DNA from: Dictyostelium discoideum
Lineage: Eukaryota
NCBI GenBank assembly: GCA_000004695.1
Contig: CM000151.3
Location: 800,001-864,000 of the forward strand
Length of the DNA stretch: 64,000 bases
Direction of reading: 5' to 3'
Shown: in pieces, positions 9,268 through 45,699 of the stretch
How the letters are laid out: every line of letters starts with the position of its first letter
Numbering within the stretch: position 1 is the first letter of the stretch
Position numbers and translations under genes: made by a program
The notes under the pieces: generated by a model
The model's input: only the letters and a program-made list of their open reading frames with translations
What the model was told of the DNA's origin: nothing
Databases searched by the model: none

Positions 9268-9533
9268 TAAAAATAAAAAATAAAAAAATTAAAAAAAATT
9301 TATATACCCCACAACAATTAAATTATTATTTATTATTAATTTTTTTAAAAGTTTTTTTTTTTTTTTTTTTTAATTAATAAGGATATTTTATTTATTTATT
9401 TATTTATATTATTATTATTTTTTCATTTTTTATTTCTTTTTAAACTTTAAATTTATTTAATCATCAACATATTACATATATAACCACAGCATGATGTGAT
9501 TTAATTCGGCTTTATAATTGATTTTTATATAAA

Positions 9534-9565
<32 letters not shown>

Positions 9566-9927
9566 CTTTTCTTCATTCTTTTTATTATGGAATATACCGG
9601 ATCACGGCAAATTTTAAAATTTCATTTTTTTAATTCACTTTTTTTATAAAATTTCATTTTCAATTTTTTTTTTTTTTTTTTAATATTTTTTTAATTTTTT
9701 TTTTAATTTTTTTTTTTTTTTTTTTTGTAAATTAATATAAATTTTTTTTTTTATTTTTTATTTTTTTTATTTTTTAATTATATATACACATATATAAAGA
9801 AATTTATTATTATTACTTTAATTGTAATAAAATAGTATATCATTAATTTTTATTTCTATTTTTTTTTTATATAACTTTTTTTTTTTTTTTTTTTTTTTTT
9901 ATAAAATTTTATTAAATTAAAAAAAGA

Positions 9928-10166: not shown

Positions 10167-11771
10167 CAAATTAAATTAGATTCAATTTATTTAGATGAAC
10201 ATTTTTCAGGTAATGCAAAGATTTTCCATAATCCAGCAGTAGCAGTATTATATGAACAAGCATTGGCATTTGAACATGGATCAGCAATTACAAGTACAGG
10301 TGCATTGGTAACCAGATCAGGTGTAAAGACTGGAAGATCACCAAAGGATAAGAGAATTGTAAAGGAACCATCATCACAAGATGATATTTGGTGGGGACCA
10401 GTCAATATTGCAATGGATGATCTTTCATTTATGATCAATCGTGAAAGAGCCATCGATTATTTGAACACTCAAGAAAAGATCTACGTTATCGATGGTTACG
10501 CAGGATGGGATCCAAAATATCGTATCAAGGTTAGAGTCATTTGCGCACGTGCCTACCATGCTCTCTTTATGCACAATATGTTAATTCGTCCAGCCAATAG
10601 AGAAGAGTTAAGAAATTTTGGAGAACCAGATTACACCATTTACAATGCAGGTCAATTCCCAGCAAATCGTTACACTAAGGGTATGTCTTCAAGCTCATCA
10701 ATCGCCATTGATTTCGCTCGTAAGGAAATGGTTATTTTGGGTACTCAATACGCTGGTGAAATGAAAAAAGGTATTCTCACCATCATGATGTATCTCATGC
10801 CAAAGATGGGTGTCTTACCATTACATTCCTCTTGCAATCAAGCTCGTAACAATGGTGATACCACATTATTCTTTGGTCTCTCTGGTACTGGTAAAACTAC
10901 ATTATCCGCCGATATTAACCGTGAATTAATTGGTGATGATGAACATGTTTGGACCGATACTGGTTGTTTCAATATCGAAGGTGGTTGCTATGCAAAATGT
11001 ATCGATCTCTCTCGTGAAAAGGAACCAGAGATCTTTGATGCCATCAAGTTTGGTGCTGTTTTAGAGAATGTCGTCTACAATGAGTACTCTCGTAAGGTCG
11101 ATTACAATGATGTCTCTATCACTGAGAACACCCGTTGTGCCTACCCATTGGAACATATCCCAAATGCCAAATTCCCAGCTATTGCCGGTCATCCAAAGAA
11201 TATCATTATGTTAACTTGTGATGCTTTTGGTATTCTCCCACCAGTATCTCGTTTAGATGCCAATCAAGTTATGTACCATTTCATTCAAGGTTATACCGCC
11301 AAAGTTGCCGGTACTGAAGTTGGTGTCACCGAACCAACTGCAACCTTTTCAAGTTGTTATGGTGAACCATTCATCGTATGGCATCCAACCAAATACGCTG
11401 AAATGTTGGCTTCTCAACTCCATAAACATTCAGCTCGTGCTTGGTTAATTAATACTGGTTGGACTGGTGGTTCTCATGGTGTTGGTTCTCGTATTAAATT
11501 GGCCTACACTCGTGCCATCATCGATGCCATTCACAGTGGAGAACTTGAAAAAATTCCAACCACTAAAATGGATGTTTTCGGTTTCCAAGTACCAAATAGT
11601 TGTCCAGGTGTTCCATCTGAAATTTTAATGCCAATTAATGGTTGGGCTGATAAAGAGAAATATGTTTCAACTATGCATAAATTGGCTAAATTATTTATTG
11701 AAAATTTCAAAAAATTCCAAGATAAAGCTTCACCAGAACTTGTAGCAGCCGGTCCAATATTACCACAATAA
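9928..11771 (+). CDS. pckA: Phosphoenolpyruvate carboxykinase [ATP]. Exon 1 is 9928..10024; exon 2 is 10210 (or 10195)..11771.
   Basis: The 502-aa ORF holds the PEPCK-ATP kinase-1a motif [11 protein letters not shown]. It also has RSPKDKRIV and the ~[12 protein letters not shown] region, which matches the conserved PEPCK-ATP N-terminal segment (AAVLYE...). An upstream exon [32 protein letters not shown] ends at a GTAAGT donor (10025). Two alternative acceptors (tttag at 10194, ttttcag at 10209) are both in frame. Confidence 0.9.
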
Positions 11772-33212: not shown

Positions 33213-33567
33213 TTAATTACAACCACAACTTGGATGTAAAATTGGATTTGTAATGGTACCAACTGTGTTTAAAACTGATCCCACAATTACACCAGTACCA
33301 ATTAAAACTCCACCAACAAGATTTCCTACTACATTTCCCAAAGTTGGTCCACCACATGGGCTATATTGAATTGAGTTTAATGATTGACTAGATGATGGTG
33401 ATGATGATGAGAATGAAACATTTTTTGATTTTGTAATTGATTTAACATTACCAATTGATGAGATTGAAGCTATAATAAATTAATATTAATATTTATAATT
33501 TTAAAAAATAAACAATTTAAAAACTATATTTTTTTAAATTTTATTATAAATTACCTAAGATTGTCAT
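33213..33567 (-). CDS. HssA/B-like (hssA/2C/7E family) small Gly/Ser-rich protein, divergent copy A. Exon 1 is 33555..33567; exon 2 is 33213..33469.
   Basis: ATGACAATCTTAG|GTAATT (MTIL-G), then an acceptor tattatag. The product is [89 protein letters not shown]. This matches the family layout of a 5-codon first exon, [10 protein letters not shown], a C/G-rich core, and a C-terminal CGC motif. Confidence 0.7.
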
Positions 33568-34238
33568 TTTTAGTTTTTAGTTTTTTTTTTTTATTATTTT
33601 TAAAAAAAAAATTATTTATTTATAGTAAAATAAAATCATATGTTTTTTTTTTTTTTTTTAACTTGTTTGGATAATAAATGATTTCATTTTTTTGATTAAT
33701 ATTAATCAATACAGATTTATTGTTTGAGTTTTAATTGTATGAAATACCAAAAAAAGTAAAAGTTAATCTTTGAAAATGAGATTTTCAAAAAAAAACAAAA
33801 GGATTATAATAAAATAATCTATTTTTTTTTTATTAAAAAGGATAAAAATATTTTTTGGAAAAATGAAAATGATTTGGTGTGTTTAAATCTATAAAAAATT
33901 AATTGCCTTTTTGCAAATGAAAAAATTTTAAATAAAAAAAAAAAAAATAACACAGATTAAAAATTAAATATTTAAATCTGATTTTAATTTGTTAAACCCT
34001 TTTTTAAAATTATTGACTTTTTCTGTTGATTGTTATAATGATAATTGAATGATTACAAAAGTTTATATTAAAACTTAAGATTTTCTTATTCATTTTCATA
34101 TCCTTTTTTTCTTTAAAAATATTAAATTTTAATATTACTCTAATATTTTGAATTTGTTTTGATAAAAATCAATATATTTAAATATATTAATTTTTTTAAA
34201 AGTCAAGTAACATGTAAAGATAAACAAATTATTTTAAA

Positions 34239-34277
<39 letters not shown>

Positions 34278-34355
34278 AATTAATTTAATTTTTACAGTTT
34301 ATTGAATTATTTTTAGTATTTGTTTTAATCTTTTAATTTAAATAATTTTACAGTT

Positions 34356-34685
34356 TTAATGGCAACCACAGTTTGGACCACTTAATAAACCACCAACAAC
34401 ACCATTGACAGTACCAACAATAATACCAGTTCCGACAAGTACACCACCTACGAGATTACCAACAGTACCAATTAATGGACTACCACCACCGCAGCCACCA
34501 CATTGTATTGAATTTGATGATTGTAATGATGAGTTTGATAATGATGAAAAATTATTTGATTTTGAAATTGATTTAACATTACCAATTCATGAGATTGAGG
34601 CTATTTAAAAATAATATAAAATAATTAATTTTAATATTATTTAATGTATATATATATATATATAAAACATACCTAAGATTGTCAT
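34356..34685 (-). pseudogene. HssA/B-like copy B. It has a premature in-frame TGA in codon 9 and a 12-nt in-frame deletion. Exon 1 is 34673..34685; exon 2 is 34356..34600.
   Basis: Exon 1 ATGACAATCTTAG|GTATGT is intact. Exon 2 begins CCTCAATCTCATGAATTGG, which in phase 1 reads A S I S stop. The plus strand has attCatgag where the other copies have attGatgag. Exon 2 also lacks the GTTGGAACTGTC segment. Confidence 0.6.
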
Positions 34686-34837
34686 TTTTAATTTTGTTAA
34701 TTGGAAATTAATTTTTTGATTTAATGATTATAAAATAAAAAAAAAAAAAACCTTTTATATCAAATTTTTTTAAACAAAAATTATTTATTTTTATTTGTTT
34801 TTAATTTATCTTACAAAAAATAAAAATAATAATTAAC

Positions 34838-35037
34838 TATCAATTAAGAAATAATGTGTTAATGGGGGTAATTATTGTGTGTTAATTAATCAACCGAATC
34901 CACCAAGGTTTTGATATGTATAAACTATTAAGTTAATACTTCATATAAATTTTTTTTTTTAAAATTTATATTGTTTCAGTTTAATTGTTCAAACACACAA
35001 TTAACCCCTCATTAACACATTATTTCCTAATTGATAG
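34838..35037. repeat. ~200-bp hairpin element with ~47-bp imperfect terminal inverted repeats (CTATCAATTARGAAATAATGTGTTARTGGGGGTAA...TTAACCCCWCATTAACACATTATTTCCTAATTGATAG). Copy 1, at the axis of hssl pair B/C.
   Basis: The left and right arms are reverse complements at ~90% identity. A ~110-bp spacer is itself partly palindromic. Further copies lie at 36840..37040, 40248..40446 and 42011..42208. A solo right-arm fragment lies at 52781..52806. Confidence 0.7.
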
Positions 35038-35389
35038 TAAATTTAAAGTATTTTTATTTATTTTTAAAGAATTTTTATTTATTCTACTCACACATCATAT
35101 TAAAATTTTTTTTTTTTTTTTTTTTTATTGTGTGGTATAATTTAATATATCTATTATACAAGAAAATAGTTTTTTGAAAATGAGATCTTTTGTGATCTAA
35201 ACAGTTAAATTTCTGAAAAAAAAGAATTTAATTATAATAATAAATTATTTGTTTTTTTTAAATTGATTTTTTTTTTTTTTAAATTTTTTTTTTTTCAAAA
35301 GTTCAAAATAAAAGTATAAATTCTAATTTTATTTCAATCATTATTTCATTAAATTAAACAATCAAAAAAATTTTAAATAAATTAATAAA

Positions 35390-35739
35390 ATGACACTCTT
35401 AGGTAAGTAATTAAATAATTAATTATAGTTTATTAAAAAATAATTTTATTAATTACTTATTTTTTAATATTAAAAAACTTAGCTTCAATCTCATCAATTG
35501 GTAATGTTAAATCAATTTCAAAATCAAATAATTTTTCATCATTATCAAACTCGTCATTACAATCATCAAACTCAATACAATGTGGTGGCTGCGGTGGTGG
35601 TAGTCCATTAATTGGTACTGTTGGTAATCTCGTCGGTGGTGTACTTGTCGGAACTGGTATTATTGTTGGTACTGTCATTGGAACTGTCAATGGTGTTGTT
35701 GGTGGTTTATTAAATGGACCAAACTGTGGATGTCATTAG
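35390..35739 (+). CDS. HssA/B-like copy C. Exons 35390..35402 and 35483..35739. 89 aa.
   Basis: ATGACACTCTTAG|GTAAGT with an acceptor aaaaaacttag. The product is [89 protein letters not shown]. The listed minus-strand ORF 35457..35690 is its antisense. Confidence 0.75.
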
Positions 35740-35934
35740 AACTGTAAAATTATTTAAATTATAATATTTTGTAATCAAAAAAGTTTTTTTATAATAAATA
35801 ACTTTGTATTAATAAAAAATTAAATCCAAAAAAGACTTAATGTTTCATTTTTTATTTTTTTATAATTTTTTTATTTTATTTTTACAATATTGTAAATTAC
35901 AAAAAGAGATTGATTATTTATACTTTTTTAAATT

Positions 35935-36190
35935 AATTACACTGACTTTCAACAGTTCTAGCATTTAGAATTAAAATATCAATTTGATATTACTTATAAA
36001 ATTTAATTAACCAATCTTTTAATTTACTTTGTCAGTAATATCAATCGATTCTACTTGAACACCAATATCCAAACATTCTTTTTTACTTCTTCTAATATTT
36101 CAATTTCCTTCCAGTCAAACCAAACCTCTTCCAGGATGACGCACCTGTGATAACTATTGCTTTTGGTGTCGGAAAATTTGTTTTCTTTTT
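35935..36190 (-). pseudogene. Decayed fragment of SDR exon 1 (remnant of a third SDR copy).
   Basis: The plus strand is alignable to 38650..38960 of SDR copy 1 (actgactttcaacagttc...cacctgtgataactattgcttttggtgtcggaaaatttgttttc). It has many substitutions and indels and no intact ORF. Confidence 0.6.
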
Positions 36191-36348
36191 TTATAATTTA
36201 AAAAACTTAATATTGTATAAAATAAAATATAAACAAATGAATTCAAAAATAATTTTTTTATTTTTAAATAATGAATTTAATTTTTACAGTTTATTGAATT
36301 ATTTTTAGTTTTTGTTTTATATCTATTAATTTAAATAATTTTACAGTT

Positions 36349-36688
36349 TTAATGGCAACCACAGTTTGGACCACTTAATAAACCACCAACAACACCATTG
36401 ACAGTTCCAACGACAGTACCAAGAATAATACCAGTTCCGACAAGTACACCACCTACGAGATTACCAACAGTACCAATTAATGGACTACCCCCACCGCAGC
36501 CACATTGAATTGAATTTGATGATTGTAATGACGAGTTTGATAATGATGAAAAATTATTTGATTTTGAAATTGATTTAACATTACCAATTGATGAGATTGA
36601 AGCTATTTAAAAATAATATAAAATAATTAATTTTTAATTATTTTGTGTATATATTTTTAGATTTTAAAGACATACCTAAGATTGTCAT
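36349..36688 (-). CDS. HssA/B-like copy D. Exon 1 is 36676..36688; exon 2 is 36349..36602. 88 aa (one-codon deletion).
   Basis: MTIL-G|GTATGT, acceptor ttttaaatag. Exon 2 encodes [84 protein letters not shown]. Confidence 0.75.
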
Positions 36689-36839
36689 TTTTTTAATATT
36701 GCTAATTGTAAATTTTAATAGTTTGATTTAATGATTTTTTTTTAAAATAAAAAAACCTTTTATATCAAATTTTTTAAAACAATAATTATTTTTTTTTATT
36801 TATTTTTAATTTATCTTACAAAATAATAATAATAATTAA

Positions 36840-37040
36840 CTATCAATTAGGAAATAATGTGTTAGTGGGGGTAAATATTGTGTGTTAATTAATCAACCGA
36901 ATCTACCGAAGTTTTTATATGTATAAACTATTGTGTTAGTTCTTCATATAAATTTTTTTTTTTAAAATTTATATTGTTTCAGTTTAATTGTTCAAACACA
37001 CAATTAACCCCACATTAACACATTATTTCCTATTTGATAG
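36840..37040. repeat. Hairpin IR element, copy 2 (axis of hssl pair D/E).
   Basis: Same arms as copy 1. Confidence 0.7.
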
Positions 37041-37374
37041 TAAATTTATATTATTATTATTTTTTTTTTTTTTTAGAAGTTTTATTTATTAACACATATT
37101 AATAATTTTTTTTTTTTTTGTGTGGTTTAATTTAGTATATCAATTATACAAGAAAATAATTTTTTGAAAATGAGATTTTTTGTGATTTAAACAGTTAAAT
37201 ATCTGAAAAAAAAAAGAATTTAATTATAAAAATAAATTATTTGTTTTTTTTTTAAATTAATTATATTTTTTAATTTTTTTTTTATTGAAAATAAAAGTAT
37301 AAATTCTAATTTTATTTTCAATCATTATTTCATTAAATCAAACAATCAAATAAACTTTAAAATAAATTAATAAA

Positions 37375-37721
37375 ATGACACTCTTAGGTAAATAATTAAA
37401 ATAAATTGTAGTTTATTAAAAAGTAATTTTATTAATTTATTTTATTTTATAAATTTAAAAAATTTAGCTTCAATCTCATCAATTGGTAATGTTAAATCAA
37501 TTTCAAAATCAAATAATTTTTCATCATTATCAAACTCATCATTACAATCATCAAACTCAATACAATGTGGTGGCTGCGGTGGTAGTCCATTAATTGGTAC
37601 TGTTGGTAATCTCGTAGGTGGTGTACTTGTCGGAACTGGTATTATTGTTGGTACTGTCGTTGGAACTGTCAATGGTGTTGTTGGTGGTTTATTAAGTGGT
37701 CCAAACTGTGGATGCCATTAA
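37375..37721 (+). CDS. HssA/B-like copy E. Exons 37375..37387 and 37468..37721. 88 aa.
   Basis: ATGACACTCTTAG|GTAAAT, acceptor aaaaaatttag. Same protein family. The minus-strand ORF 37442..37672 is the antisense artefact. Confidence 0.75.
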
Positions 37722-37871
37722 ATTTATTAAAATCGATAATGTTTTTTTATAATAAATAAATTTGTATAAATAAAAAATGAATTTCAAAAAAGACTTAACA
37801 TGTTCATTTTTATTATAACTATTTTTTTTTTTTTTTTTTACAATATTATAAATTACAAAAAAAAAGATTGA

Positions 37872-39063
37872 TTATTTATTATGAGTCTTAATTTTTTGAG
37901 AATTTAAATTTTTAACTGATGAGGAGGGACAATTTTCTCTTTTTGATTCATTTGTAGAATATCGAGAGTGATGAGAATAATGAGTTACTGGTTTCCTATA
38001 GTCTGGATATTTTGCAAGAGAATTTATAATAAAATTAGTGGCATCTCTTAAAGTTGGTGGAATTGTGGCAAAGAAATGAGATATACAATAAACTAAAGGT
38101 GGGCATGAAATTATTGCATCATTTCTACTAATACCATCTACAATGTATTTTGAAGCTTTGTCAGTTGTTATAGGTAGTAACATTGGTATATCTTTATAAT
38201 CCAAAGAATCAACTAATGGAGTATAAACAAAACCTGGTATTATTACTGAAACGCCAACACCTCTTGATGCTAAACCATTTCTAAGTATTAACCCAAATGA
38301 TTTTAGGTAACCTTTACTTGATGAATATCCTGCCATTGTATAATCAAAATATGGTGTAATACTTGACATCAAAACCAATTGACCAGATCCTCTTGATTCA
38401 AAGATTGGTACCATTGGTAAAACTGTATTCAAGGTTCCAATTACCTATAATAAATAATTTATTAATTAGTTTTAAAAGAATATCATTACTTTTTATATTT
38501 TTAAAATTATTTAAGATATTACATTTGTGTTTGTAACTGTTAATATTCTTTCAGTAAAATCTAATTCTTTTGGTAACATTGCTGGAATTTTTTTTTTAAA
38601 TATAAATAAATATATTAAGAAAACCAATTTTTTTTTTTTTAAAAAAGTAATTATACTGACTTTCAACAGTTCCAGCATTTGCAATTAAAATATCAATTTT
38701 ATATTTATTATCAAATTTAATTAACCAATCATATAATTTTTCTTTGTCAGTGACATCAATTGATTCAATTTCTACTTGAACACCAAGATCCAAACATTCT
38801 TTTTGAATTTCTTCTAATTTTTCAATGTTTCTTCCAGTTAAACCTAAAACCAAAGAATTATTGGTTTTTCTTTTTGCATATTCAAGTGCTATTCCTCTAC
38901 CAATACCAGATGATGCACCCGTGATAACTATTGCTTTTGGTGTTGGGAAATTTGTTTTCTTTTTTTTATAATTTAAAAAACCTAATATAGGATAAAATAT
39001 TAAAAGAATCATTGAACCAATTATATTGGTCAACAATAAAGATATATCAGTTAGCACTGCCAT
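37872..39063 (-). CDS. Membrane-anchored short-chain dehydrogenase/reductase (SDR), copy 1. Exons 38661..39063, 38523..38581, 37872..38444.
   Basis: N-terminal TM helix (LTDISLLLTNIIGSMILLIFYPILGFL). Rossmann motif ITGASSGIGRGIALEYAKRK. NAG motif ILIANAGTVE. Catalytic YSSSK in exon 3. The splice sites are GTCAGT (38655-38660) with ttccag (38582-38583), and GTAATA (38517-38522) with ttattatag (38445-38446). Phases 1/0 are consistent, and the same sites occur in copy 2. Confidence 0.8.
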
Positions 39064-39130
39064 TCTTATTATTAATTTTTTTTGAAAAATTTAAATTAAA
39101 AAAAAATTTAAATTAATAAAAAAAATTTAA

Positions 39131-39168
<38 letters not shown>

Positions 39169-39334
39169 TTAAAGTGTTAAAATTCTAAACCGTTTAAAAG
39201 AATGTTTAATTAATTAATTCAAAAACACCAAGAATAAAAATTGATTTACAATATTAAATTTTCATTTTTTAACAAATTTTTTTTATATTTTTTAAAAAAA
39301 ATACAAAACAGGAAGGTTGTCAAAACAGATCTAT

Positions 39335-39382
<48 letters not shown>

Positions 39383-39645
39383 TTTAATATAAAATTAAAT
39401 AATTAAATAAATCATTTTAAATCTAATTTTAATTTTAAAAACATTTTACAAAGATTAAAATCAGATTTAAAATAACTTTTTCTTTAGTTAATCAAATAAT
39501 AATTAAATAATTTCAAAAGTTTATATTTATACTTTTTTTTTTTATTCATTTTCATATTCACTTTTAATAAGATTATCATAAAAAATTCTGAATTGTTTTA
39601 ATGAAATAAATTTATTAAATATTTTAAAAAAATGAATTCAAAATT

Positions 39646-39680
<35 letters not shown>

Positions 39681-39760
39681 AATAATGAATTTAATTTTTA
39701 CAGTTTATTGAATTATTTTTAGTATTTTTTTATATCTATTAATATAAATAATTTTCAGTT

Positions 39761-40107
39761 CTAATGACATCCACAGTTTGGACCACTTAATAAACCACCA
39801 ACAACACCATTGACAGTTCCAACAACAGTACCAAGAATAATACCAGTTCCAACAAGTACTCCACCGACGAGATTACCTACGGTACCAATTAATGGACTAC
39901 CACCACCGCAGCCACATTGAATTGAATTTGATGATTGTAATGACGAGTTTGATAATGATGAAAAATTATTTGATTTTGAAATTGATTTAACATTACCAAT
40001 TGTTGAGATTGAAGCTAAGTTTTTAATATTAAAAAATAAATAATTAATAAAATTTTTTTTTAATAAACTACTATTAATTATTTTAATTACTTACCTAAGA
40101 GTGTCAT
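39761..40107 (-). CDS. HssA/B-like copy F. Exon 1 is 40095..40107; exon 2 is 39761..40014. It is plus-slot type (MTLL-G|GTAAGT) sitting in a minus-strand slot.
   Basis: The revcomp of cttacctaagagtgtcat gives ATGACACTCTTAG GTAAGT. Exon 2 encodes [84 protein letters not shown], then a TAG stop. Confidence 0.75.
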
Positions 40108-40247
40108 TTTATTAATTTATTTAGAGTATTTTGATTTAATGATTTATTAAAAAAAAAAAAAAAAAAAAAATCCTTTTATATCAAAATTTTTTATAACAAT
40201 AATAACAACGTTTATTTGCTTTTAATTTATCTTAATAATAGTAATTA

Positions 40248-40446
40248 ACTATCAATTAGGAAATAATGTGTTGGTGGGGGTAAATATTGTGTGTTAATTA
40301 ATCAACCGAATCTACCGAAGTTTTTATATGTATAAACTATCGTGTTAGTACTTCATATAAACTTTTTTTTTAAATTTATATGTTTCAGTTTAATTGTTCA
40401 AACACACAATTAACCCCACAATAACATATTATTTCCTAATTGATAG
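40248..40446. repeat. Hairpin IR element, copy 3 (axis of hssl pair F/G).
   Basis: Same arms as copy 1. Confidence 0.7.
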
Positions 40447-40760
40447 TAAATTTATATTATTATTATTATTTTTTAAAAAAAGTTTTATTTATTCTTCTCA
40501 CACACATTAAAAATAATAATATTTTTTTTTTTGTGAGGTTTAATTTAATATATCGATTATATAAGAAAATAATATTTTGAAAATAAGATTTTTTGTGATT
40601 TAAACAGTTAAATATCTGAAAAAAAGAATTTAATTATAATAATTAATTATTTGTTTTTTTTAATTTTTTTATTTTTTTTATTCAAAATAAAAGTATAAAT
40701 TCTAATTTTATTTTCAATCATTAAATTAAACAATCAAATAAACTCTAAATAAATTAATAA

Positions 40761-41112
40761 AATGACACTCTTAGGTAAGTAATTAAAATAATTAATAGTA
40801 GTTGATTAAAAAATAATTTTATTAATTATTTATTTTTTAATATTAAAAAACTTAGCTTCAATCTCAACAATTGGTAATGTTAAATCAATTTCAAAATCAA
40901 ATAATTTTTCATCATTATCAAACTCATCATTACAATCATCAAATTCAATTCAATGCGGTGGCTGCGGTGGTGGTAATTCATTAATTGGTACTGTTGGAGG
41001 TCTTGTTGGTGGTGTACTTGTTGGAACTGGTATTATTGTTGGTACTGTCATTGGAACTGTTAATGGTGTTGTTGGTGGTTTATTAAGTGGTCCAAGCTGT
41101 GGATGCCATTAA
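40761..41112 (+). CDS. HssA/B-like copy G. Exons 40761..40773 and 40856..41112.
   Basis: MTLL-G|GTAAGT with an acceptor aaaaaacttag. Exon 2 encodes [11 protein letters not shown]...[53 protein letters not shown]. Confidence 0.75.
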
Positions 41113-41274
41113 AATAATGTTTTTTAGAATAAATAAATTTGTATATATAAAAAATGAAATTCAAAAAATACCTAACACCTTTCTTTTTTTTTTTTTATTA
41201 TTTGTTTTTAATTTTTTTATATAATTACTAAAATTGAATTTTTTTTTTTTTTTTTTAAAAATTAATTACACTGA

Positions 41275-41400
41275 CTTCCAACTGTTCCAGTATTTGCAAT
41301 TGATCAATTTGATGTTTATCATCCAAATTTAATTAACTGATCTTTATATTTTCTTTGTCAGTGACATCATAAAAATTCTGAATTTGTAGTTATAAAATGT
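41275..41400 (-). pseudogene. Short decayed SDR exon-1 remnant (fourth ancestral copy).
   Basis: cactgacttccaactgttccagtatttgcaattga...tttctttgtcagtgacatc aligns to the 3' end of SDR exon 1 (38650..38760). Confidence 0.45.
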
Positions 41401-41528
41401 AACATGTAAAGATTAACAAATGAATTCAAAAATAATTTTTTTTTTTTTTTATTAATTTAATTTTTACAGTTTATTTGAATTATTTTTAGTATTTGTTATA
41501 TATTTTTTAATTTAAATAATTTTACATT

Positions 41529-41870
41529 TTAATGGCAACCACAGTTTGGACCACTTAATAAACCACCAACAACACCATTGACAGTTCCAACGACAGTACC
41601 AACAATAATACCAGTTCCTACAAGTACACCACCCACAAGATTACCAACAGTACCAATTAATGGACTACCACCACCACAGCCACCACATTGAATTGAATTT
41701 GATGATTGTAATGACGAGTTTGATAATGATGAAAAATTATTTGATTTTGAAATTGATTTAACATTACCAATTGATGAGATTGAAGCTATTTAATAATAAA
41801 ATAAAATAATTAATTTTTAATTATTTTGTGTATATTTTTTAGATTTTAAAGACATACCTAAGATTGTCAT
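41529..41870 (-). CDS. HssA/B-like copy H. Exon 1 is 41858..41870; exon 2 is 41529..41785.
   Basis: MTIL-G|GTATGT, acceptor aaatag, full-length 89-aa product ending ...GPNCGCH. Confidence 0.75.
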
Positions 41871-42010
41871 TTTTTTAATTTTGTTAATTGTAAATTTTAA
41901 TAGTTTGATTTAATGATTTTTTTAAAAAAAAAAAAACCTTTTATATCATAATTTTTAAATTTTTTTATTTGTTTTTAATTTATCTTACAAAAAAAAAAAA
42001 TAATAATAAA

Positions 42011-42208
42011 CTATCAATTAGGAAATTTATGTGTTAGTGGGGGTAAATATTGTGTTAATTAATCAACCGAATCTACCGAAGTTTTTATATGTATAAACTA
42101 TCGTGTTAGTACTTCATATAAACTTTTTTTTTAAATTTATATTGTTTCAGTTTAATTGTTCAAACACACAATTAACCTCACAATAACATATTATTTCCTA
42201 ATAGATAG
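42011..42208. repeat. Hairpin IR element, copy 4 (axis of hssl pair H/I).
   Basis: Same arms as copy 1. Confidence 0.7.
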
Positions 42209-42562
42209 TATATTTTTATTATTATTTTTTTTTTAAAAAAAGTTTTGTTTTTTCTTCTCACACATATCATATAAAAAATAATAATAATAATTTTTTTTTT
42301 TTTTTTGTGTGGTTTAATTTAATATATCGATTATACAAGAAAATCGTTTTTTGAAAATGAGATTTTTTGTGATTTAAACAGTTAAATATCTGAAAAAAAG
42401 AATTTAATTATAATAATTGATTATTTGTTTTTTTTTTTAAAATTAATTATATTATTTAATTTTTTTTTTTTATTCAAAATAAAAGTATAAATTCTAAATT
42501 TATTTTCAATCATTATTTCATTAAATCAAACAATCAAATAAACTTAAAAATAAATTAATAAA

Positions 42563-42912
42563 ATGACACTCTTAGGTAAATAATTATAATTAATTATAGT
42601 TTATTAAAAAAGTAATTTTATTAATTATTTTATTTTATAATATTAAAAAACTTAGCTTCAATCTCATCAATTGGTAATGTTAAATCAATTTCAAAATCAA
42701 ATAATTTTTCATCATTATCAAACTCATCATTACAATCATCAAATTCAATTCAATGTGGTGGCTGCGGTGGTGGTAGTCCATTAATTGGTACTGTTGGTAA
42801 TCTCGTCGGTGGAGTACTTGTTGGAACTGGTATTATTGTTGGTACTGTTGTTGGAACTGTCAATGGAGTTGTTGGAGGTTTATTAAGTGGTCCAAACTGT
42901 GGATGTCATTAA
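42563..42912 (+). CDS. HssA/B-like copy I. Exons 42563..42575 and 42656..42912.
   Basis: MTLL-G|GTAAAT, acceptor aaaaaacttag, 89-aa product. The minus ORF implied in the track is antisense. Confidence 0.75.
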
Positions 42913-43066
42913 AATAAATGTTTTTTTATAATAAATAGCTTTGTACAAATAAAAATGAAATTCAAAAAGATTTAATACATTTCTTTTTTTTTTATTATTT
43001 ATTTTTTTATTTTTTATTTTTACAATATTTATTTTTAAATTAGAAAAAATGATTAATTATTTATTA

Positions 43067-44242
43067 TTATGCCTCTTTATTTTTTTGAGAATTTGAATTC
43101 ATAGCTGGTGAGGAGGGACAATCCTCTCTTTTTGATTCATTTGTTGAATATTGAGAGTGATGAGAATAATGAGTTACTGGTTTACTATAATCTGGATATT
43201 TCAAAAGAGAATTTGAAATGAAATTAGTGGCATCTCTTAAAGTTGGTGGAATTGTGGCAACGAAATGAGATATACAATAAATTAAAGGTGGGAATGAAAT
43301 TATTGCATCATTTCTACTAATGCCATCGACAATGTATTTTGAAGCTTTGTCAGTTGTTATAGGTAGTAACATAGGTATATCCTTATAATCCAAAGAATCA
43401 ACTAATGGAGTATAAATAAAACCTGGTGTTATTACTGAAACGCCAACGCCTCTTGATGCTAAACCATTTCTAAGTATTAACCCAAATGATTTTATGTAAC
43501 CTTTACTTGATGAATATCCTGCCATTACATAATCAAAATATGGTGTAATACTTGACATCAAAACCAATTGACCAGATCCTCTTGATTCAAAGATTGGTAC
43601 CATTGGTAAAACTGTATTCAATGTTCCAATTACCTATAATAATTTATTAATTAGTTTTAAAAGAATATCGTTACTTTATATTCAAATTATTTAAGATATT
43701 ACATTTGTGTTTGCAACTGTTAATATTCTTTCAGTAAAATCTAATTCTTTTGGTAAAATTGCTATGAAAATTATTTTTTTTAAATAATTAATACAAGTAA
43801 ACCTTTTTTTTTTTTTTAAAAAAAATTATGTATACTGACTTTCAATAGTTCCAGCATTTGCAATTAAAATATCAATTTTATATTTATTGTCAAATTTAAT
43901 TAACCAATCATTTAATTTTTCTTTGTCAGTGACATCGATTGATTCAATTTCTACTTGAACACCAAGACCCAAACATTCTTTTTGAATTTCTTCTAATTTT
44001 TCAATGTTTCTTCCAGTTAAACCTAAAACCAAAGAGTTATTTTTTTTTCTTTTTGCATATTCAAGTGCTATTCCTCTACCAATACCAGATGATGCACCCG
44101 TGATAACTATTGCTTTTGGTGTTGGGAAATTTGTTTTCTTTTTTTTATAATTTAAAAAACCTAATATAGGATAAAATATTAATAGAATTATTGAACCAAT
44201 TATATTGGTCAACAATAATGATATATCAGTTAAGACTCCCAT
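43067..44242 (-). CDS. Membrane-anchored SDR, copy 2 (paralog of 37872..39063). Exons 43840..44242, 43703..43761, 43067..43633.
   Basis: Nearly identical to copy 1. It has the same TM N-terminus, TGASSGIGRG, the GTCAGT donor (43834-43839), the middle 59-nt exon (ILPKELDFTERILTVANTN), and YSSSKGYIKSFG in exon 3. Confidence 0.8.
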
Positions 44243-44655
44243 TCTTATTATTTTTTATTTTTTTTGAAATGAAAAAAAAAAAAAATTATTAAATGGCAAA
44301 AACTCAATCAAAAAAAAAAAAAATAAATAAATAAAAAAAATAAAAATAAAATAAAATAAATCTGATTCCAAAGATATTTTTAGATTTTTTTTATTTTTTT
44401 TTTTTTATTTTTCCCAAATAAGAATTTAATTAAATAAAAATTGAATAATTAAATAAACCAAAATTAAAAAATAAAATATAAAAAACAAATTACTTTAATT
44501 AGAAATTAATTTATAAAAAAAAAGAAAAAAGAAAATTGTGAAATAAATTTTTTAAAATTATGGAGCATATAAAAAGAACAAATTTTTTTTTTATTATTTC
44601 CAATATTATTATTTATATTTTAAAAAATAAACAAATAAACAAATAAAAAAAAAAA

Positions 44656-45699
44656 ATGTTTAAACAAATAATTATATTTATAGCTTTAATACTTTTTATT
44701 TTTAATCAATTGGATATAGTATCAAGTTGTAGATGTGATTCAGATTGTGAAGATTGTAACGAATGTACATTAGATACCTGCTCCCGTGGATGTTGTTCAA
44801 ATATTGAAATAGATTGTGCTGATGATAATCCATGTACCAAAGATTCATGTTCCAAAGAGACTGGTTGTATTCATGAAGATATTAATTGTGATGATGGTGA
44901 TGCTTGTACAACTGATTCATGTTCTCAATTATCTGGTTGTTGTAATTTACCAATCTCTTGTGATGCTTGTACAACCGATTCTTGTTTAAATTCCACTGGT
45001 TGTTGTAGTTTACCAATCTCTTGTGATGATGGTGATGCTTGTACAACTGATTCATGTTCAAAGAAAACTGGTTGCAGTAATGTTCCAATTGCATGTGATG
45101 ATGGCAATGCTTGTACCAATGATGGTTGTTCAAAGGAAACTGGTTGCACTCATTCTAATATCGATTGTGATGATGGTGATGCTTGTACAACTGATTCATG
45201 TTCAAAGAAAACTGGTTGCTGTAATGTTCCAATTGCTTGTGACGATGGTAATGCTTGTACCACTGATGGCTGTTCCAAGGAAACTGGTTGCACACATTCT
45301 AATATCGACTGTGATGATGGTGATGCTTGCACTACTGATTCATGTTCTAAAAAGACTGGTTGCAGTAATATACCAATGTCTTGTAATGATAATGATGCTT
45401 GCACAACCGATTCATGTTCAAACTCTACTGGTTGTTGTAATTCCCCGATTTCATGCGATGATGATCATGCTTGTACCACCGATAGTTGTTCTAAAGAAAC
45501 TGGTTGTTGCAATTCCCCAATCTCTTGTGATGATGGTGATTTGTGTACCACCGACAGTTGTTCTAAAGAAACTGGTTGTTGCCATACTCCAGTTTCATGC
45601 GATGATGGAGAAGATTGTACAACTGACACTTGTTCATCAAAATTAGGATGTGTTCATACCTATATCACTATTTCTCAACCAAAACCTGTTGATTGTTGA
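44656..45699 (+). CDS. Secreted Cys-rich protein built of ~13 tandem 24-aa Dictyostelium CTDC-type repeats. 347 aa.
   Basis: Signal peptide MFKQIIIFIALILFIFNQLDIVSS. The repeat unit is C(D/N)DG(D/N)ACTTDSCSK(K/E)TGC(C/S)N(V/I)PI(A/S). It is the 24-residue Cys repeat of EcmA/EcmB-type extracellular matrix proteins (Pfam Dicty_CTDC). The overlapping ORFs 44882..45133, 44925..45149, 45023..45646 and 45150..45404 are repeat-frame artefacts. Confidence 0.7.
   Translation: MFKQIIIFIALILFIFNQLDIVSSCRCDSDCEDCNECTLDTCSRGCCSNIEIDCADDNPCTKDSCSKETGCIHEDINCDDGDACTTDSCSQLSGCCNLPISCDACTTDSCLNSTGCCSLPISCDDGDACTTDSCSKKTGCSNVPIACDDGNACTNDGCSKETGCTHSNIDCDDGDACTTDSCSKKTGCCNVPIACDDGNACTTDGCSKETGCTHSNIDCDDGDACTTDSCSKKTGCSNIPMSCNDNDACTTDSCSNSTGCCNSPISCDDDHACTTDSCSKETGCCNSPISCDDGDLCTTDSCSKETGCCHTPVSCDDGEDCTTDTCSSKLGCVHTYITISQPKPVDC

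Follow-up and report, generated by a model that had tools for sequence, protein, structure and literature searches.

A short 5′ segment of Dictyostelium sigN11 was very probably copied from its inverted partner sigN8 by gene conversion

The window, by which we mean the whole stretch of 64,000 nucleotides from Dictyostelium discoideum that was analysed, is AT-rich eukaryotic DNA with a G+C content of approximately 20%. A hallmark of Dictyostelium, a Dicty_CTDC repeat protein, is encoded at positions 44656-45699. Pattern searches of the window identified a small two-exon gene in nine copies, here designated A to I; the start motif gave nine matches compared to 0.47 expected by chance, and the end motif gave eight matches with 0 expected. 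The cluster extends over 9.7 kb (33213-42912). Located on the minus strand are copies A (33213-33567; intron 85 nt, product 89 aa), B (34357-34685), D (36349-36688; 73 nt, 88 aa), F (39761-40107; 80 nt, 88 aa), and H (41529-41870; 72 nt, 89 aa), and on the plus strand copies C (35390-35739; 80 nt, 89 aa), E (37375-37721; 80 nt, 88 aa), G (40762-41112; 81 nt, 89 aa), and I (42563-42912; 80 nt, 89 aa). Exon 1 is 13 nt and the intron 72-85 nt in all nine copies, and the eight that are intact (A and C-I) have a second exon of 254-257 nt and upon in silico splicing gave products of 88-89 amino acids of the form MT[IL]...GCH. Copy B is a pseudogene that contains a premature TGA stop at codon 9 and a 12-nt deletion in exon 2. 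Four head-to-head pairs, B/C, D/E, F/G, and H/I, have common intergenic regions of 654-704 bp. The interval on which we focused, 39761-41112, ends exactly at the stop codon of F on one side and the stop codon of G on the other.

The encoded proteins match the Pfam family PF05710 (hssA/2C/7E) over the full length of the profile, with scores of 84.3 bits for F, 89.9 bits for G, and 81.8 bits for A (gathering threshold 21.4 bits). The genes are also built in the manner of this family: the first of two exons contributes a 13-nt ORF, the single intron is short, the second exon measures about 250 nt, and the Ser/Gly/Cys-rich product has fewer than 120 residues. A cluster of about 10 kb organised in head-to-head pairs has been described on chromosome 2 of D. 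discoideum as Group 2 of the sigN genes (Vicente et al., 2008, BMC Microbiol 8:1, PMC2257962). Its members are sigN6, 7, 8, 9, 11, 12, and 14 plus sigN10, with the pairings sigN8/sigN11, sigN7/sigN12, and sigN9/sigN14, and with sigN8 described as complementary to sigN11 (PMC2257962). In the published sigN genes a single intron separates exon 1, with its 13-nt ORF, from a second exon of 253-256 nt; the products have 88-89 amino acids, and the Group 2 pairs have palindromic promoters with GBF-like G-boxes (PMC2257962). In the order of copies A and C-I, the published intron lengths and numbers of amino acids are 84/89, 79/89, 72/88, 79/88, 79/88, 80/89, 71/89, and 79/89 (PMC2257962); our intron and protein lengths agree with this table with a constant offset of 1. 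Arrangement, promoters, and intron and protein lengths identify the locus as this sigN Group 2 cluster, in which A and C-I correspond to sigN10, sigN6, sigN12, sigN7, sigN11, sigN8, sigN14, and sigN9, respectively, and copy B is absent from the list of Vicente et al. (2008). The assignment of F as sigN11 follows from its being the gene to which sigN8 is complementary and from the 88 amino acids and 79-nt intron listed for it.

Searches outside the window returned little. None of the eight intact proteins had an exact match in a collection of 15 billion proteins, a homolog search of this collection found a single relative, a D. dimigraforme protein with 62% identity, and metagenomes scanned for a 42-mer that is conserved among copies C-I in their second exon yielded 0 matches. 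The D. dimigraforme locus was considered as an outgroup for the polarity of the sequence types described below. It was rejected for this use because its head-to-head pair is sigN10-like and non-syntenic (0 matches by tblastx).

The copies were aligned from −360 to +620 relative to the ATG, and every variable column was tabulated. The original prediction held that the genes in the minus slot of the pairs (B, D, and H) differ from those in the plus slot (C, E, G, and I) in start, splice donor, and ending, and every item that it listed is present in the sequence. The minus-slot copies start with ATGACAATC (MTIL), use the donor GTATGT, and end in GGT TGC CAT TAA; the plus-slot copies start with ATGACACTC (MTLL), use GTAAGT or GTAAAT, and end in GGA TG(T/C) CAT. 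The two types are approximately 72% identical over the intron and 5′UTR and 92-96% identical in exon 2. Copy F is located in the minus slot (exon 1, 40095-40107; intron, 40015-40094, 80 nt, GTAAGT...TTAG; exon 2, 39761-40014, all on the minus strand), yet it has MTLL, the donor GTAAGT, and the ending GGA TGT CAT TAG, as had been noted. Likewise, the change of TCA to ACA that gives S9T, for which F had been singled out together with its partner, is confined to F and G (G exon 1, 40762-40774; intron, 40775-40855; exon 2, 40856-41112, all on the plus strand). The broader claim, that this minus-slot copy carries the plus-slot allele, held for a short 5′ tract and for the last codons and failed for the promoter, the body of exon 2, and the 3′ flank, a pattern that has the look of a multi-donor mosaic. 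F is therefore a mosaic without being a whole plus-type gene, and its plus-type character is limited to a 5′ segment of 122-189 nt and the last few codons.

The minimal plus-type tract in F covers positions 40003-40124 on the minus strand (122 nt), with a maximal extent of 39945-40132 (189 nt). It begins 17 nt ahead of the ATG and extends through exon 1, in which Ile3 has become Leu, and the complete intron to the twelfth nucleotide of exon 2, thereby taking in S9T. The matching segment of G, the candidate donor template, is located at 40745-40867 on the plus strand (mapped from alignment columns 463-605). Within the tract F and G differ by two substitutions and one indel, such that 123 of 126 columns (97.6%) are identical, compared to 118 of 126 for F and C; against B, D, and H, 90-95 of about 127 columns are identical (71-75%), with 19-23 substitutions. 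Three variants in the tract, at alignment columns 463, 516, and 605 (S9T), are common to F and G and are not found in other plus copies. Among 16 copy pairs compared in this segment F-G was the closest, with C-G, E-I, and D-H differing by 6+1, 7+2, and 4+1 substitutions plus indels, respectively. The alignment contains 81 substitution sites at which {B,D,H} and {C,E,G,I} are fixed for different states. F has the plus state at all 14 diagnostic sites within 40029-40120 and the minus state at 63 of the 67 sites outside (Fisher p = 4.5e-13), and its run of 15 plus states was reached in 0 of 100000 permutations. Chance is excluded as an explanation for this pattern.

At its 5′ side the tract ends at an A-rich junction (40124-40133, minus strand) adjoining the motif ATCATTAAAT(C/T)AAA, which is common to both slot types. 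Here F is about 11 nt shorter than either the minus or the plus type (columns 452-462). In the junction (columns 443-463), F has the minus-type state and not that of G at column 443, whereas at column 463 it matches G alone. A clean microhomology join at AATCAAA was tried as a description of this junction, which lies in low-complexity sequence, and was discarded since its prediction was off by one indel and one substitution. The 3′ limit can only be placed within 39945-40002, because this interval contains no variable sites; the next variable site, 39944, separates F from G.

Outside the tract, the sequences flanking the gene are of the minus type on both sides. The promoter half of F (40125-40440, minus strand) is 85-87% identical to those of B, D, and H; its alignments with plus-type promoters were poor, at 56-58% for C, E, and I and 71% for G over a partial alignment of 156 columns. 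Fifty of its 51 diagnostic sites are minus-type, and the split BDHF|CEGI received 100% bootstrap. A central palindromic element of the common F/G promoter (40224-40471; arms 40224-40280 and 40415-40471) bears G-rich, GBF-type boxes in its arms; the element was left intact by the exchange and corresponds to regulatory regions A and B of Vicente et al. (2008; PMC2257962). Minus-type sequence resumes directly 3′ of the F stop codon, and the first 100 nt of the 3′ flank (39660-39760, minus strand, AACTG-AAAATTATTTA...ACTAAAAATAATTCAATAAACTG) are of this type, with 11 of 11 diagnostic sites in 39686-39749 minus-type and the BDHF split again at 100%. We built bootstrapped NJ trees for each segment and obtained support by explicit split counting. 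In the tract, CEGIF was recovered in 100%, FG in 99.3%, and BDHF in 0% of the replicates. The grouping of F that the original prediction had proposed to examine by alignment and phylogeny is thus with G in the tract and with B, D, and H in the promoter and 3′ flank, and F does not cluster with B/D/H over the whole gene and its flanks, the outcome that would have spoken against the prediction. The closest relative of F changes along the gene, with recipient-type sequence on both sides of the tract, as is characteristic of gene conversion. Accordingly, sigN11 is a chimera in which a minus-type promoter drives a plus-type 5′UTR, exon 1, and intron.

The remainder of exon 2 has a different history. 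The body of F exon 2 (39771-39944, minus strand) is a patchwork, D-like with I-like patches. It shares with D a 3-nt deletion at 39915/39916 (QCGCGGG) and a C at 39835 that changes Val to Leu, and the protein body of F is identical to that of D; synonymous variants at 39866, 39860, 39851, and 39824 are common with I, either exclusively or jointly with C or G. The DF split received 70% bootstrap in this segment. F and G are among the most distant pairs here, with 16 differences in 228 positions (Fisher p = 0.025 versus the tract), and none of the seven private exon 2 substitutions of G is found in F. The last codons of F (39761-39770, minus strand) read GGA TGT CAT TAG. Exon 2 has a single slot-diagnostic site, the GGA at 39770, and here F has the plus state; TGT is common with C and I, and TAG with C only. 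This ending cannot derive from the present G, since TAG matches only C and G ends in GGA TGC CAT TAA, lacking the AACTG motif. Copy C is the only plus copy with a 3′UTR that starts in the minus-type AACTGTAAAATTATTTAAATTA motif, which would give homology for an exchange with F at the 3′ end. Arm-to-arm gene conversion, as originally proposed, therefore stands for the 5′ segment (FG 99.3% in 40003-40124) but not for the ending or for the D-like body of exon 2.

Mosaicism in exon 2 extends to the other copies. In a four-gamete test 28 of 55 informative site pairs failed within 254 nt, from which it follows that all copies exchange short patches of exon 2. This mosaic indicates concerted evolution of exon 2, with promoters, introns, and flanks remaining slot-specific. 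A run-length permutation test of all copy pairs in exon 2 found no significant pair that included F. The best pairs, with values uncorrected for 28 tests, were B-C (0.0066), C-I (0.017), and B-I (0.018); the long run common to B and C, which are head-to-head partners, is an observation to be set alongside the possibility of recurrent exchange between arms that is discussed below. The D-like, I-like, and C-like patches of F are suggestive of pieces from several donors. They may be separate small conversions or the product of one early whole-gene conversion that was later overprinted.

The history of the array provides information regarding donor and direction. According to Vicente et al. (2008) the array arose from an inverted tandem that was duplicated successively, and the word conversion has 0 occurrences in that paper (PMC2257962). 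Stringent self-comparison of the window resolved a unit of about 2 kb for each of the four pairs, with 86-90% identity between units, and in addition a duplicated 5.2-kb superunit, in which 36225-39165 matches 41408-44341 with 90.5% identity over 3 kb. The match aligns D, E, and a two-exon short-chain dehydrogenase gene with H, I, and a second copy of the dehydrogenase gene. The positional counterparts are therefore B-F, C-G, D-H, and E-I, a scheme that agrees with the closeness of D-H, E-I, and C-G in the intron segment and with the 3′ flank, where B and F group together. Given that B is minus-type, the ancestor of F was minus-type too. G is plus-type throughout, in promoter, exon 1, intron, and 3′ flank, and F is plus-type in the tract only, which sets the direction of transfer as G to F. 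Because both genes have the plus-type segment and G keeps its own type, the exchange was non-reciprocal. The F states that are found in G and absent from C place the transfer from the G lineage after the superunit duplication. In the one assembly analysed, the 5′ end of F (sigN11) was thus very probably acquired from G (sigN8) by non-reciprocal interlocus gene conversion between inverted repeats.

The plus states at the two ends of F, in the 5′ tract and at GGA 39770, leave some room for a larger event. An early plus-type copy, either G before its divergence or the C/G ancestor, could have converted F over its full length, between −17 and the stop codon, in one step. D- and I-like copies would then have overwritten the central part of exon 2, and G would have gained the exon 2 changes peculiar to it. 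In F and in C, the positional paralog of G, TAG precedes the AACTG motif of the 3′UTR, and the seven G-private differences in exon 2 could be later than the event. However, this scenario requires more events, and G itself has TGC CAT TAA without the AACTG motif. The G-private changes are also distributed weakly unevenly, with zero to one in the tract versus seven in exon 2, and the F tract has G states missing in C, which makes the donor younger than the C/G split. We consider a whole-gene conversion of this kind unlikely, although it deserves more weight than the explanations that follow.

An artefact in which reads from G were merged into F during assembly or cloning is a very unlikely source of the mosaic. 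The region is error-prone for assembly, consisting of four units of about 2 kb with 86-90% identity, and a single assembly was analysed. However, the tract measures about 120-190 nt and is bordered on both sides, within the length of one Sanger read, by unambiguous minus-type sequence. In addition, the tract is not identical to G: one substitution on the F side, one on the G side, a difference in poly-A length, and the 11-nt junction deletion, which is unique to F, distinguish the two, and F has two private substitutions in exon 2. For sigN11, Vicente et al. (2008) list 88 amino acids and a 79-nt intron, which also speaks for the sequence, as far as a listing derived from the same reference genome, and hence not independent, can do so (PMC2257962).

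Reciprocal crossing-over between the arms was a further suggestion of the original prediction, as a small inversion followed by homogenisation. Inverted repeats are able to flip the segment that they enclose, and F and G form such a pair, with 654 bp between them. Such an event would move the promoter halves and leave a minus-type exon 1 and intron in G, but minus-type sequence in the F promoter reaches −18, G has a plus-type promoter, and the plus-type 5′ segment is present in both genes. The inversion is excluded on these grounds, namely the unswapped promoter halves and the plus-type 5′ end of G, and we attach next to no probability to it. Equally improbable is that no sequence was transferred, F having either retained the ancestral type of intron and exon 1 or arrived at it by convergent mutation: the original pair was probably an inverted duplication (Vicente et al., 2008; PMC2257962) whose arms once had the same intron, but the flanks of F have all derived minus-type states of B, D, and H, the tract has G states missing in C, E, and I, and it is not credible that 14 diagnostic substitutions and several indels within 120 nt arose by convergence.

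Returning to conversion of F by G, the copying of sequence is directly visible in the alignment and the repair route is read from the anatomy of the junctions. We propose gap repair anchored in exon 2 because the tract crosses the heterologous intron and reaches 17-26 nt upstream of the ATG. In this model F would initially have been an ordinary minus-slot copy that suffered a break or gap in the region of its intron and exon 1. Homologous repair would then have overwritten its 5′ end using as template the inverted partner G, about 620 bp away, with the highly similar exon 2 serving as anchor for strand invasion and synthesis proceeding through the intron, exon 1, and 5′UTR of G. The new strand may have been recaptured on F in a short A-rich motif near ATCATTAAATCAAA that is present in both types, and recapture out of register would account for the loss of about 11 nt at the junction.

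The sigN genes are small prestalk genes of Dictyostelium. Our results indicate that the Group 2 array was shaped by short-tract conversion between inverted and direct copies, beyond the published duplication, a finding of modest importance. We therefore regard the F/G event as one visible episode of ongoing short-tract conversion in the array, a process that normally spares the slot-specific promoters, introns, and 3′ flanks. As a consequence of such conversion, protein or exon trees of the family do not mirror the duplication history. The chimeric nature of sigN11 is also relevant to the design of gene-specific probes, primers, and knock-outs in the cluster and to the use of these genes as prestalk markers. 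A more far-reaching idea, which we regard as doubtful, is that the head-to-head palindromes promote partner-directed repair, for example of breaks at the hairpin- or cruciform-prone promoter. Arm-to-arm conversion might then be recurrent and driven by this architecture, shuffling 5′UTR, intron, and N-terminal modules between divergently transcribed partners and contributing to the maintenance or regulatory evolution of the approximately 100-member hssA/2C/7E family.

Compared with the published account of sigN Group 2 (PMC2257962), the locus itself presents no differences, with the same gene structure, pairs, and palindromic promoters. Our additions to that description are small and consist of the mosaic sigN11, the unannotated pseudogene B, and the 5.2-kb superunit; the specific F/G event appears to be unreported. 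The arrangement of donor and recipient as inverted repeat arms on one chromosome, without inversion, is likewise found in the human Y palindrome P6 (PMC3723533). In the Y palindromes, arms measuring tens to hundreds of kb are kept more than 99.9% identical by frequent multi-kb conversion (PMC3723533), whereas the sigN arms are about 380 nt long, with an identity of 93% for F/G and 86-88% for the remaining pairs (F/G 93.4%; B/C 86.4%, D/E 87.0%, H/I 87.9%). Near-identity of whole arms in all palindromes, as expected of systematic Y-like homogenisation, is not seen in the array. Since the other three pairs kept their slot-specific introns, homogenisation between arms has been sporadic and not systematic.

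Parallels are also found in surveys of interlocus conversion between paralogs in Caenorhabditis and Drosophila (PMC3966223, PMC3924832). In those systems, as in the sigN array, conversion is non-reciprocal and involves closely spaced, similar paralogs, and the outcome is a short tract (on the order of 10^2 nt), a discordant phylogeny along the gene, and homogenised coding sequence with diverged flanks. The F tract differs from such paralogs (PMC3966223, PMC3924832) in that it leaves the conserved exon 2 and crosses the poorly conserved intron and 5′UTR (approximately 72% identity), to stop in a very short common motif with a small deletion. One-side-anchored gap repair would fit these features better than simple correction of a heteroduplex. 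The F/G event is an ordinary interlocus gene conversion between neighbouring paralogs of a known family and calls for no new mechanism.

Positions 36225-39165 and 41408-44341 of the window form a duplicated superunit with a period of 5.2 kb and 90.5% identity over 3 kb. The superunit contains D and E, a head-to-head sigN pair whose counterparts are H and I, together with a two-exon short-chain dehydrogenase (SDR) gene, which in the first superunit lies at 37872-38432 and 38596-39063 (minus strand); its second copy is at 43067-43621 and upstream. The array therefore grew by duplication not of single pairs alone but also of a larger block, made up of four sigN genes together with one SDR gene.

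Exchange between copies was evident in exon 2 of copies B-I, where 28 of the 55 pairs of informative sites were incompatible in the four-gamete test. At 13 polymorphic sites in succession the partners B and C (sigN6) carry the same state (uncorrected p = 0.0066), a hint that pair 1 too has undergone an arm-to-arm exchange. Copy B itself (34357-34685, minus strand), the minus-slot partner of C, is by its sequence a pseudogene: codon 9 is TGA (34587-34589) and 12 nt of exon 2 are deleted. Apart from these lesions the copy is intact in its promoter, its intron (GTATGT donor) and its 3′ flank. Copy B is absent from the published list of sigN genes (Vicente, 2008; PMC2257962). Exon 2 of G (sigN8; 40856-41112) has seven private substitutions, several of them non-synonymous (SP to NS, N to G and N to S). 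The coding sequence of G is the most divergent of Group 2, yet its 5′ segment is the template copied into F (sigN11).

At the 3′ end of C (35737-35767), the TAG stop is followed by about 25 nt of a 3′UTR motif (AACTGTAAAATTATTTAAATTA) of the minus type, the class otherwise found in B, D, F and H, after which the plus-type flank resumes; the stretch is missing from G and I. Either it survives from an ancestral state or a further conversion introduced it, and no other homology could account for the TAG ending common to C and F.

The promoter shared by F and G carries an inverted repeat with 57-nt arms (40224-40280 and 40415-40471; 81% complementary) and a 134-nt spacer, and an equivalent repeat is central in the shared promoters of the other three pairs too. 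These repeats carry G-rich boxes (GTGGGG/CCCCAC) and correspond to regions A and B, to which GBF putatively binds (Vicente, 2008; PMC2257962). The spacers flanking F contain very long A/T homopolymer runs of 20-45 nt (39130-39165, 39340-39376, 39648-39680 and 40150-40171). Long A/T homopolymers are typical of Dictyostelium intergenic DNA; beside the converted gene F they are potential fragile or slippage sites.

Divergent pairs also exist outside D. discoideum, since a Dictyostelium dimigraforme locus (JBTAPM010000036.1) has two family members arranged head-to-head, at 9459-9700 (minus strand) and 10396-10727 (plus strand). Only the plus copy has a gene call, and the minus copy looks interrupted. 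Their products start MTIM... and MTIF..., and the C-terminus of the pair, ...SCGCN, resembles that of sigN10 (copy A).
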